A stretch of 64,000 nucleotides of DNA from Pristiophorus japonicus. Its lineage: Eukaryota. A program made the translations under genes and the position numbers. This document shows, in pieces, positions 10,082 to 64,000 of this stretch. The notes beneath the pieces are model-generated. The model made no database searches. It saw only the letters and a list, made by a program, of their open reading frames with translations, and had not been told where the DNA came from. Location: positions 32,674,001 to 32,738,000 of the forward strand of contig NC_091993.1 in assembly GCF_044704955.1 (NCBI RefSeq). The letters run 5' to 3'. Every line of letters begins with the position of its first letter. Within the stretch, counting starts at the first letter, position 1.

Positions 10082-11773
<1,692 letters not shown>

Positions 11774-56800: not shown

Positions 56801-57282
56801 TTTTTGACTGAAAACCTACCTTTCTAACTTCATATTTTAAGTATTGTTGTAAAATAATAAATGCATAGGGCTTTGTGAAAAATGTTACCGAATGCTGCAG
56901 CTAATCATTTGCACTGCTACAAGGATAGCCAATAATAAAACATTGTGAATTCGGGAGATGTTTTTTTATTATGACGATAACGGAAACACACTCCTTGACT
57001 CAGTGGAAGCGGATTCGTCGAATGGAGCCTACGGTGGCAGCAGTCGCTCCCCACTCCGTGCAATTGTTGAAATCCCTCTTCTCCAGAATGTAATGTAGGC
57101 CCCGGTAATTTGGATCCTGATAGACTACCCAGCTATGATGAAAGGAGGAAAAAATATAAGCAAATATATGCTGGCTCTAAGTTCATGCTTATGGACATAA
57201 AAGATCCCACGGCCATTATTTCGAAGAAGAGCAGGGGCGTTCGCCCCGGTGTCCTGGGGCTAATATTTATCCCTCCATGACC

Positions 57283-58753
57283 GTGAGGGTAGCCAATGTA
57301 ACCCCACTTTTTAAAAAAGGAGGGAGAGAGAAAACAGGGAATTATAGACCGGTCAGCCTGACCTCAGTAGTGGGTAAAATGATGGAATCAATTATTAAGG
57401 ATGTCATAGCAGTGCATCTGGAAAATGGTGACATGATAGGTCCAAGTCAGCATGGATTTGTGAAAGGGAAATCATGCTTGACAAATCTTCTGGAATTTTT
57501 TGAGGATGTTTCCAGTAAAGTGGACAAAGGAGAACCAGTTGATGTGGTATATTTGGACTTTCAGAAGGCTTTCGACAAGGTCCCACACAAGAGATTAATG
57601 TGCAAAGTTAAAGCACATGGGATTGGGGATAGTGTGCTGACGTGGATTGAGAACTGGTTGTCAGACAGGAAGCAAAGAGTAGGAGTAAACGGGTACTTTT
57701 CAGAATGGCAGGCAGTGACTAGTGGAGTGCCGCAAGGTTCTGTGCTGGGGCCCCAGCTGTTTACATTGTACATTAATGATTTAGACGAGGGGATTAAATG
57801 CAGTATCTCCAAATTTGCGGATGATACTAAGTTGGGTGGCAGTGTGAGCTGCGAGGAGGATGCTATTAGGCTGCAGAGTGACTTGGATAGGTTAGGTGAG
57901 TGGGCAAATGCATGGCAGATGAAGTATAATGTGGATAAATGTGAGGTTATCCACTTTGATGGTAAAAACAGAGAGACAGACTATTATCTGAATGGTGACA
58001 GATTAGGAAAAGGGAAGGTGCAACGAGACCTGGGTGTCATGGTACATCAGTCATTGAAGGTTAGCATGCAGGTACAGCAGGCGGTTAAGAAAGCAAATGG
58101 CATGTTGGCCTTCATAGCGAGGGGATTTGAATACAGGGGCAGGGAGGTGTTGCTACAGTTGTACAGGGCCTTGGTGAGGCCACACCTGGAGTATTGTGTA
58201 CAGTTTTGGTCTCCTAACTTGAGGAAGGACATTCTTGCTATTGAGGGAGTGCAGCGAAGGTTCACCAGACTGATTCCCGGGATGGCGGGACTGACCTATC
58301 AAGAAAGATTGGATCAACTGGGCTTGTATTCACTGGAGTTCAGAAGAATGAGAGGGGACCTCATAGAAACGTTTAAAATTCTGACGGGGTTAGACAGGTT
58401 AGATGCAGAAAGAATGTTCCCAATGTTGGGAAAGTCCAGAACCAGGGGTCACAGTCTGAGGATAAGGGGTAAGCCATTTAGGACCGAGATGAGGAGAAAC
58501 TTCTTCACCCAGAGAGTGGTGAACCTGTGGAATTCTCTACCACAGAAAGTAGTTGAGGCCAATTCACTAAATATATTCAAAAGGGAGTTAGATGAAGTCC
58601 TTACTACTCGGGGGATCAAGGGTTATGGCGAGAAAGCAGGAATGGGGTACTGAAGTTTCATGTTCAGCCATGAACTCATTGAATGGCGGTGCAGGCTAGA
58701 AGGGCTGAATGGCCTGCTCCTGCACCTATTTTCTATGTTTTTATGTTTCTATG
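57283..58753 (+). mobile_element. Young 5'-truncated CR1 LINE with uninterrupted RT frame, nested in a Deu-SINE (57190-57276 / 58754-58935)
   Basis: 458-aa ORF with NYRPVSLTS, YLDFQKAFDKVPH, GVPQGSVLGP and KFADDTKL. Tail TTTCTATG repeats. The SINE sequence resumes after the tail. Confidence 0.95.
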
Positions 58754-60957: not shown

Positions 60958-61176
60958 AAAATATTTTCCTTCTCTTCCTGGCTCCCTATCTATGAGGCAG
61001 CAATCAATCTCCAATTGGCGCCTCTATCCCCTGGCACCATTACCCATTGGCACCTCTACCCAATGACACAGCACAGCTTAAGGACGCATGGTGAGATTCT
61101 CTAACCATGAACCTGCAGCTCTTGGCTCTGCGATGTACCATCTGATAAAGGAGGCGATTTAATTTTTTTTAATTAC

Positions 61177-61451
61177 ATGTCCCCCTTCGCTTAGAGGATT
61201 TTACTGGAGGTGGGTGGGGTGGCTTGACCCATCCACCTCCACGGAGGTGTGTGGGGGACCTGACCCATCCGCCTCCATGGCACGAACCTGGTATTGCAGT
61301 ACTTCCAGGAGCGGTGCAGTGGCTCTAGGCCTTTTGGCTAAGAGCATTGGCGCAGAGTGATCCTTGGCGTGTGCAGGGTGACCTCTGGCGTTTGTGATTT
61401 GACAAAGAATTGGAACGATTGGCTACGAATTTCCAAAAAAAAAAAAAAAAA
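61177..61451 (+). mobile_element. U2 snRNA-derived, poly(A)-tailed retroposed element with permuted module order
   Basis: ACCTGGTATTGCAGTACTTCCAGGAGCGGTGCA (U2 3' stem-loop IV, 61286-61318) is followed by GGCCTTTTGGCTAAGA (U2 5' stem-loop I, 61328-61343). A17 tail. AATTAC on both sides. Confidence 0.8.
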
Positions 61452-61518
61452 TTACTGAGTGATGACCACCTGAGGTCATTTACTGCATCATGCAGCATTA
61501 TAATCAGAGCAAATGTTT

Positions 61519-62235: not shown

Positions 62236-64000
62236 AACATAGAAACATAGAAAATAGGTGCAGGAGTAGGCCATTCGGCCCTTCGAGCCTGCACCACCAT
62301 TCAATATGATCATGGCTGATCATTCACCTCAGTACCCCTTTCCCGCTTTCTTTCCATACCCCTTGATCCCTTTAGCCATAACGGCCATATCTAACTTCCT
62401 CTTGAACATATCCAATGAACTGGCATCAATGACTCTCTGCGGCAGGGAATTCCACAGGTTAACAACTCTCGGAGTGAAGAAGTTTCTCCTCATCTCAGTC
62501 CTAAATGGCCTACCCCTTATCCTAAGACTGTGTCCCCTGGTTCTGGACTTCCCCAACATCAGGAACATTCTTCCCGCATCTAACATGTCCCGTCCCGTCA
62601 GAATCTTATACGCTTCTATGAGATACCCTCTCATCCTTCTAAACTCCAGTGTATAAAGACTTGATCCAGTCTCTCCTCATAGGTCAGTCCAGCCATCCCT
62701 GGAATCAGTCTGGTGAACATTCGCTGCACTCCCTCAATAGCAAGAACGTCCTTCCTCAGATTAGGAGACCAAAACTGAATACAATATTCCAGGCGAGGCC
62801 TCACTAAGGCCCTGTACAACTGCAGTAAGACGTCCCTGCTCCTATACTCGAATCCCCTAGCCATGAACGGCAACATGCCGTTTGCCTTCTTCACCACCTG
62901 CTGTACCTGCATGCCAATTTTCAATGACTGATGAACCATGACACCCAGGTCTCGTTGCACCTTCCCTTTTCCTAATCTGCCACCATTCAGATAATATTTT
63001 GCCTTCGTGTTTTTGCCACCAAAGTGGATAACCTCACATTTATCCACATTATACTGCATCTGCCATGCATTTGCCCACTCGCCTAACCTGTCCAAATCAC
63101 CCTGCAGCCTCTTAGTATCCTCCTCACAGCTCACACCGCCACCCAGTTTAGTGTCATCTGCAAACTTGGAGATATTACACTCAATTCCTTCATCCAAATT
63201 GTTAATGTATATTGTAAAGAGCTGGGGTCCCAGCACTGAGCCCTGTGGCACTCCACTCGTCACTGCCTCCCATTCCGAAAAGGACCCGGTTATCCCGACT
63301 CTCTGCTTCCTGTCTGCCAACCATTTCTCTATCCACGCCAGTACATTACCCCCAATACCATGTGCTTTGATTTTGCACACCAATCTCTTATGTGGGACCT
63401 TGTCAAAGGCCTTTTGAAAGTCCAAATACACCACATCCACTGGTTCGCCCTTATCCACTCTACTAGTTACATCCTCAACAAATTCCAGAAGATTTGTCAA
63501 GCATGATTTCCCTTTCACAAATCCATGCTGACTTGGACCAATCCTGTCACTGCTTCCCAAATGCGCTGCTATTTCATCCTTAATAATTGATTCCAATGTT
63601 TTCCCCACTACTGATGTCAGGCTAACCGGTCTATAATTTCCCGTTTTCTCTCTCCCTCCTTTTTAAAAAACTGGTGTTACATTAGCTACTCTCCAGTCCA
63701 TAGGAACTGATCCTGAGTCGATAGACTGTTGGAAAATGATCACCAGTGCATCCACTATTTCTAGGGTCACCTCCTTAAGTACTCTGGGATGCAGATAATC
63801 AGGCCCCGGGGATTTGTCGGCTTTCAATCCCATCAATTTCCCCAACACAATTTCCTGTCTAATAAGGATATCCTTCAGTTCCTCCTTCTCACTAGACCCT
63901 CGGTCCCCTAGTACATCCGGAAGGTCATTTGTGTCTTCCTTCGTGAAGACAGAACCAAAGTATTTGTTCAATTGTCTGCCATTTCTTTGTTCCTCATTAT
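62236..64000 (-). mobile_element. CR1 LINE (RT domain, few frameshifts), runs off window
   Basis: ORFs 63663-63971, 62631-63608 and 62329-62634(-) carry CR1 RT motifs. Tail (TTTCTATG)2. Confidence 0.95.

Follow-up and report, generated by a model that had tools for sequence, protein, structure and literature searches.

The R2 retroelement enters the multicopy 28S rDNA site-specifically and relies on the promoter of its host gene. The available part of Kojima's 2015 study (PMC4494074) describes R2 as co-transcribed with 28S rDNA and defines SINEU, the snRNA-headed SINEs, in crocodilians only, tying them to the Keno lineage of Tx1 elements by shared targets. SINEU-1, -2 and -3 carry stacked 5' fragments of U2 and U1, are shorter than 500 bp, end in poly(A), contain internal oligo-T, occur as tandem copies around a target site duplication (TSD), acquire 5' snRNA additions and use targets of Keno-lineage Tx1 elements, and SINEU-1 shares no tail with a LINE; in all these respects they resemble the shark family described here. 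How SINEU is transcribed is named in the same text as an open question, because snRNA promoters lie outside the transcribed region. Keno elements, with an AP endonuclease and a reverse transcriptase (RT), have the 3' flank at U2 +38 (available parts of PMC6136364, PMC4640811 and PMC4494074): KenoDr1 shows the very flank found below (PMC6136364), and Keno and Utopia have a common 3' flank in U2 (PMC4640811). The literature searched (Repbase, Dfam and most subscription papers lay outside it) yielded no chondrichthyan SINEU and no U2-promoter model, and the available portion of a paper on chimaera and shark SINEs (PMC5499810) mentions neither snRNA nor SINEU nor Tx1.

The window analysed here, 64,000 nt at C17:32674001-32738000 of the genome of the shark Pristiophorus japonicus, contains a sequence that the original prediction had read as rearranged U2 modules: no simple pseudogene, and either a U2-derived SINE or the 3' UTR of an L1/Tx1-type element carrying U2 mimics. 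As judged from sequence comparison, it is a copy of a young, many-copy SINEU-type retroposon (Table 1). The copy is truncated at the 5' end and comprises positions 121-349 of a 349-nt full element, so that the 3' two-thirds of the SINE are present, the U2 head, U1 stem-loop I and Sm-like site having been lost. It differs from the column modes of the R1 and R1del subfamilies by 3 substitutions, all A>G, and one extra terminal C; RNA editing as the cause was rejected, since family-wide private A>G changes (14) equal T>C changes (12). A search of the 5.92-Gb assembly with the window element gave 1,699 candidates, 40 of which were scored; the other full matches among those listed are 96-99% identical and start at query position 29-37. 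Since the 46 other listed matches start at query position 29 or later, most of them at 32-37, the Sm-site-like sequence noted at 61196 is flanking DNA.

Table 1. Features of the SINE copy and its target site in the window.
Feature	Position	Strand	Basis
Rival left TSD, AATTAC	61171-61176	+	Chosen in the original prediction; 29 extra nt needed
Flank and most of left TSD, outside the element	61196-61205		No other listed match spans all of it; 5' flanks of matches differ
Left TSD, favoured reading TTACTG	61201-61206	+	Adjoins element 5' end
5'-truncated SINE copy	61206-61434	+	97.8% identical to natural full copy L029:1384-1732; R1/R1del diagnostics
SLIII-derived hairpin a, 13-bp stem	61206-61240	+	z -4.5 in L029 vs z -1.67 for host U2 SLIII
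SLIII-derived hairpin b, duplicate of a	61243-61276	+	a vs b score 57, 0/500 shuffles
U2 SLIV and 3' end	61280-61319	+	Score 65 vs host U2, 0/500 shuffles
Second, internal U2 SLI	61320-61346	+	Score 41, 0/500 shuffles
Tail, 88 nt	61347-61434	+	Homologous to family B tail; nested hairpin with variable loop
Poly(A), A17	61435-61451	+	Read from the letters
Right TSD, favoured reading TTACTG	61452-61457	+	Adjoins element 3' end

The remaining modules are where they had been predicted to be. Both hairpins derive from U2 SLIII, scoring 36 and 32 against the U2 of this genome (values reached by 0/500 and 1/500 shuffles, respectively), and an older copy of the SINE has one such hairpin instead of two; the SLIV with the U2 3' end, the SLI copy, the roughly 90 nt of unique sequence and the A17 are likewise present, and neither U1, U2 nor the Keno 3' UTR matches the tail. 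The region folds with z -3.51. The Rfam U2 model gives the window copy 17.8 bits, below the cut-off of 46; hits to the Rfam prion pseudoknot, PVT1 and pRNA models, also below cut-off, are attributed to chance. In the SLIV loop of the A-type SINEs (window 61280-61319), two bases are unlike both host U2 types and nearer to the Rfam consensus, for which a third host U2 type or a later change might account. As to the target site, a duplication is indeed present, but TTACTG is more likely than the previously proposed AATTAC because it abuts both ends of the element. The usual A preceding the TSD, seen at 49/54 family sites, fits AATTAC better. The downstream flank is single-copy, and hence no empty site within the same genome decides between the two, TTACTG remaining the favoured reading.

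Many copies reach about 120 nt further 5' than the window copy, to U2 base 1. In the full element, the U2 head is followed by U1 stem-loop I, an Sm-like site, the duplicated SLIII, SLIV, the second U2 SLI, the tail and poly(A). Element nt 1-35 match host U2 1-35 (score 64, 0/500 shuffles); nt 36-103 match host U1 3-69, mainly stem-loop I (score 70, 0/500 shuffles), while against U2 the same segment scores 33, a level that shuffles also reach; nt 91-150 correspond to the host U2 Sm site and SLIII (score 49). The family's own Sm-like site lies at about position 107-115, a part absent from the truncated window copy. With the full-length copy, the Rfam U2 model reaches 60.4 bits over model positions 1-192, which is above the cut-off. 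The element is thus colinear with U2 from +1 through SLIV, with U1 replacing SLII, and the permuted module order that had been claimed is an appearance produced by 5' truncation together with an internal second head. According to the alignment, this internal SLI was inherited from the sister family B, where SLI comes after a near-complete U2. Runs of T4 in both SLI copies and of T6 in the Sm-like site, as read from the sequence, would argue against transcription of the SINE by Pol III; the same oligo-T argument was used for SINEU (available part of PMC4494074).

At the join between the U1 piece and the U2 head, the U1 CCTG is placed roughly where the cut site of Keno falls in U2 (L029:1384-1435; L068:1501-1530), and one A2 copy has Keno inserted at this CCTG junction; the offset match may explain how U1 was captured.

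The family is large. An exact 33-mer of the R tail occurs 1,248 times in the genome (control, 0), the sister subfamily A2, 89% identical to R1, has 196 exact tail matches, and there are 354 for family B, which looks older and in which SLI and a homologous tail come after a near-complete U2. Classing of 109 full-length copies from 234 anchor hits, a sample biased by the queries used, distinguishes at least six subfamilies with shared indels and median divergences of 0.3-1.5% from their own modes. Since the rearrangements and subfamily diagnostics are common to many copies, the element evidently replicates as a family and not as independent chimeras. The alignment shows a graded series from host type-A U2 through B0 (a U2 that has a short deletion and continues into a second head) and B1 to a U1-bearing form with a single SLIII and, finally, to the double-hairpin forms. 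The series is unrooted and the order of events is one that we infer from it; it points to the host's own snRNAs as the origin of the element.

Copy boundaries were examined in the first 30 R loci on contig C1, starts being taken from local alignment with a possible error of a few bases. Starts fall at positions 1-12 in 16/30 R copies, the range observed for these on C1 being 2-12, and in 25/30 A2 copies; beyond their start, the R and A2 copies alike pass directly into unrelated flank, a TSD or a neighbouring element. Among the 14 truncated R copies, 8 start at 117-132, immediately downstream of the Sm-like site (compared with uniform starts, binomial p 1.3e-7); the window copy shows this clustered form of truncation. 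Exact TSDs of at least 7 nt, up to 19 nt, flank 18/30 R loci, and 8/30 have a tandem neighbour. Elsewhere, real U2 8-58 has been added onto a truncated form of the SINE (L013), and R and B copies occupy one identical point of a short tandem satellite (L002, L081, L285), possibly a fourth preferred site.

The copy number, subfamily diagnostics, poly(A), TSDs and a 5' end fixed at U2 +1 all bear out the U2-derived SINE of the original prediction. Its alternative, a 3' UTR of an L1/Tx1 element, fails, as full-length copies have their 5' end at U2 +1 and truncated ones break off into unrelated flank or a tandem neighbour, neither joining a Tx1 or L1 ORF2, and the intact Keno has no match to the tail. 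In being a 349-nt (<500 bp), non-coding, multi-copy element with a U2/U1 head, poly(A), TSDs, target sites shared with Tx1 and tandem copies around a TSD, the shark family agrees with SINEU. It differs from SINEU-1, -2 and -3 of crocodilians, as they are presented in the available part of PMC4494074, in its elasmobranch host, its own U2 and U1 sequences, its younger age and its intact partner; in its targets, which are U2 genes, Gypsy pol and a Harbinger-type element versus Mariner-N4_AMi for SINEU; and in the copies at +1 of U2 promoters, of which that part of the paper reports none. Because the series from B0 to R appears to descend from host type-A U2, the shark family is likely to be separate in origin from crocodilian SINEU. 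Processed U2 pseudogenes and snRNA-LINE chimeras also have snRNA sequence, poly(A) and a TSD (PMC4494074, same part) but lack the family-wide rearrangements and diagnostics. Nor is this a classical SINE with a tRNA, 7SL or 5S head and a LINE tail, given that the head is U2/U1 and the tail does not match Keno.

The prediction also held that the SLIII-like hairpin is duplicated and that its pairing has been kept. The duplication stands; a signal of constraint is confined to the 3' part of the element. At positions 121-340, subfamily changes affect 1 paired (a wobble that keeps the pair) and 21 unpaired positions, compared with 24 paired and 54 unpaired among private substitutions (p 0.012); at positions 121-300 the counts are 1/10 and 24/42 (p 0.09), and over the whole element, 27/39 and 54/66, there is no difference (p 0.64). 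As a single member served for the structure prediction and a 7-nt deletion was counted per column, these numbers lend modest support to stem constraint in the 3' part only. One two-sided change in a tail stem, judged by eye, separates B from the A forms, and the tail as a whole folds no better than shuffles (z 0.5). Compared with the host originals, the SLIII and U1 hairpins of the SINE are stronger, for which either selection or palindrome-perfecting mutation could account.

What could move such an element? Inside the tandem U2 array lies an intact Tx1 with an ORF1 of 577 aa (ZCCHC3-type RNA-binding domains, zf-CCHC) and an ORF2 of 1145 aa comprising Exo_endo_phos (AP endonuclease), RVT_1 (RT) and zf-RVT; it is inserted 37 nt into U2, its poly(A) joining U2 +38. 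Among named proteins, those nearest are from Pleurodeles (47-49%) and Takifugu (RT BAD04856.1, 39%), and none is labelled Keno. Like Keno in its enzymes and junction, this element, hereafter Keno, differs from the Keno of the literature (available parts of the papers cited above) in having its U2-like head joined directly to the promoter at +1, in self-insertion and in many insertions outside U2; it has 126 exact 3'-end matches. True U2 sequence contains 52 poly(A)-U2(+38) junctions, and in the 51 that were read Keno precedes 29 (12 of them within one repeated unit on C9) and a SINE tail 22 (20 A2, 1 R3 and 1 B); at the U2 junctions examined, no protein-coding element other than this Tx1 was identified. 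Six further R-tail copies at the U2 +38 site lie in family-B or U2-like fragments. A second shared site, antisense in Gypsy pol, holds R at 2/30 loci, A2 at 7/30 (6 with both flanks), Keno at 3/30 (two independent loci) and one B copy. The Harbinger-type site was entered by R and B (3/30 each), with no A2 there and no Keno among the 30 sampled. SINE sequence stands directly 3' of the Keno end at 6/30 Keno loci, and Keno and the SINE are each found inserted in the other's head at the same offset; the two have no common 3' tail. From the shared targets, the SINE is likely mobilised by this Keno-type Tx1. The suggested Keno/Tx1 link therefore holds for a partner using the same target and not for a part of the element. 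That altered heads guard against self-insertion was considered and refuted, as Keno enters both its own head, which yields tandem copies, and an A2 head.

The Keno 5' UTR (L061:6750-6872, minus strand) has an octamer and an inverted CCAAT-like motif after the U2-like head, and motifs of the inverted CCAAT type (ATTGG) recur in the SINE tail; these are possible internal promoter elements. Many U1 genes have a Keno-like 3' fragment (90-97%) about 500 bp upstream, and such fragments also lie between inverted U1 pairs (L067, L069, L073, L074, L076-L078), and at one inverted pair (L075) two SINE copies sit within a Keno ORF1 fragment. At type-B U2 loci, Keno, family B and remnants of U2 are nested in trains (L063:362-1900; L174:4700-6300), which are repeated in an 18-21-kb unit on C9.

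The copies in U2 genes have a common layout: upstream DNA runs without a break into base 1 of the SINE, whose poly(A) is followed by U2 38-191 and the usual 3' flank. There is no TSD, and the U2 1-28 head of the SINE replaces nt 1-37 of the gene. Such A2 copies at +1 number 17 in type-A U2 arrays (a further type-A copy sits at a contig edge) and 1 behind a type-B promoter on another chromosome, C9, a total of 18 genes that goes back to few independent events; in the C19 array, 11 Keno heads are likewise fused at +1. Over the upstream 240 nt, 7/9 SINE units are identical to 49/49 intact units, and over the downstream 200 nt, 10/10 are identical to 49/51 intact units. The 18 A2 copies of the arrays comprise 16 identical ones and 2 others, so they probably represent one event, some unplaced contigs possibly being overlapping or redundant. 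Dispersed A2 copies were sampled at 30 loci; 5 truncated ones were set aside and 25 compared over 302 nt. Among these, 19 are identical to one of the U2-embedded haplotypes (10, 8 and 1) and 6 differ by 1-2. All three haplotypes have a U2-embedded copy; the third stands in a C19 unit now capped by Keno, and the U2 copy of the commonest haplotype is the Keno-capped one. This identity gives no direction of descent, since U2 would be reached by every haplotype that is active. The private base at position 28 of the type-B copy is missing from the 8 matching dispersed copies, and the haplotype fixed in the array is rare among dispersed copies (2/30). For R1 and R2, in the larger group to which the window copy belongs, no promoter-linked copy was found: 18 candidate heads are preceded by the last bases of either promoter, and 0/18 proved to be such a source. 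The sole R-type copy in a true U2 gene, an R3 in a type-B gene, has lost the promoter; sources of R might be concealed by turnover of the arrays or by their collapse in the assembly.

The type-B upstream DNA has a PSE-like motif, judged by eye, at the offset seen in U1 genes, and the type-A upstream DNA has no PSE or octamer like those of U1 genes. The two upstream regions (type A, L036:1692-2200; type B, L059:1000-1500) are unrelated. Type-A U2, perhaps, by analogy with other vertebrates, a germline- or embryo-specific class, forms tandem units of about 770 bp with GTT/GAT microsatellites. In the C19:69625000-69725000 array (L147-L156, L079), elements occupy 16/17 of the units read: Keno is present in 11, in 4 of them as a tandem pair whose second member lies in the U2-like head of the first, and the SINE alone in 5.

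We consider it rather probable that the family uses borrowed U2 promoters and is likely copied by the Keno-type Tx1 of the same U2 site; such borrowing would explain how SINEs without a promoter of their own are transcribed. The cycle can be envisaged as follows. The SINE in a U2 gene ends 3' at U2 +38, with the promoter, the spacer, U2 38-191 and the 3' flank left unaltered. From the snRNA promoter, Pol II would then produce an RNA of SINE, internal A-tract and U2 38-191, and the Keno ORF2, to judge from the shared targets, would prime on the A-tract, inserting the SINE at U2 +38, at secondary sites of looser specificity or, with a TSD of 7-20 bp, almost anywhere. In a U2 target, the U2 head of the cDNA might pair with the 5' end of the gene, creating a new source gene, which array turnover may amplify or lose. 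The clustering of truncations 3' of the Sm-like site would be caused by a bound Sm ring or a hairpin. Because the SINE starts at the first base of the transcript, no self-cleavage would be needed, unlike in R2; a Pol II snRNA gene takes the place of Pol I rDNA, and the SINE is a non-autonomous passenger. A bolder version, to which we give slightly better than even chances, is a self-renewing parasite of snRNA arrays: the SINE would ride the Tx1 into U2, swap heads, become a Pol II snRNA-type gene and have its RNA handled as an snRNP via the kept Sm site and U2 3' stem-loops, with Keno using the same trick.

A competing scenario, which we regard as unlikely, retains the same Keno partner but takes dispersed copies as the sources, read through from what flanks them, be it a Gypsy or Harbinger target, a host gene or the tail of a tandem copy lying upstream, the copies in U2 genes being dead-end Keno products. 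It would accommodate the missing promoter-linked source of R1 and R2, the private base of the type-B copy and the rarity of the array haplotype among dispersed copies, as well as the tandem neighbours and the ATTGG repeats in the tail; moreover, transcription from flanks has been proposed for crocodilian SINEU (available part of PMC4494074). Yet full-length copies never share flank 5' of U2 +1, as is expected for a start at +1, and a U2-embedded copy exists for every A2 haplotype. That another LINE (L1, another Tx1 or Utopia) mobilises the SINE while Keno is only co-resident seems quite improbable: this Tx1 alone was found among the protein-coding elements at the examined U2 junctions, and the Gypsy site, the tandem trains and the reciprocal head insertions at one offset tie it to the SINE, even though the two lack a common 3' tail, the Harbinger-type site yielded R and B and no Keno, Utopia has the same U2 3' flank (PMC4640811, available part) and the survey covered this Tx1 alone.

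Still less credible is that the U2-embedded copies are a domesticated variant snRNA and the dispersed ones its processed pseudogenes. The full copy does score above the Rfam U2 cut-off, subfamily changes in the 3' domain avoid stems and the copies have been amplified in the U2 arrays; however, U1 sequence stands in place of the branch-point and SLII region, the subfamilies, at least six and only slightly diverged from their modes, turn over fast, and the U2-embedded copies themselves are broken by Keno. That the sequence is the 3' UTR of some longer L1/Tx1 element, or a set of independent template-switch chimeras of snRNA, is favoured by the U2 addition at L013 and yet has next to no probability in view of the fixed 5' end, the internal deletions and duplications common to the copies, and a tail with which no LINE was continuous in the loci read.

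Under the preferred, borrowed-promoter reading, the promoter-linked copies bear on the question of SINEU transcription left open by Kojima. If the bolder version is true, SINEU would have arisen independently outside crocodilians, and the transcription of snRNA-headed SINEs would have a general explanation. A single genome here contains a young family, an intact candidate partner, candidate source genes with U2 promoters and a graded series from U2 to the composite element, and two retroelements compete in it for slots in an essential multicopy array of splicing-RNA genes.

Elsewhere in the window, a single-exon ANKRD34C-like ORF occupies 10082-11773 (+), its protein identity being 91-93% to sharks and rays, 86% to chimaera and 76% to coelacanth, values that place the host among the elasmobranchs. 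The stop-free frames at 57181-58650 (+) and 62634-63662 (-) are RT fragments of CR1/L2-like LINEs, the type being assigned by eye.
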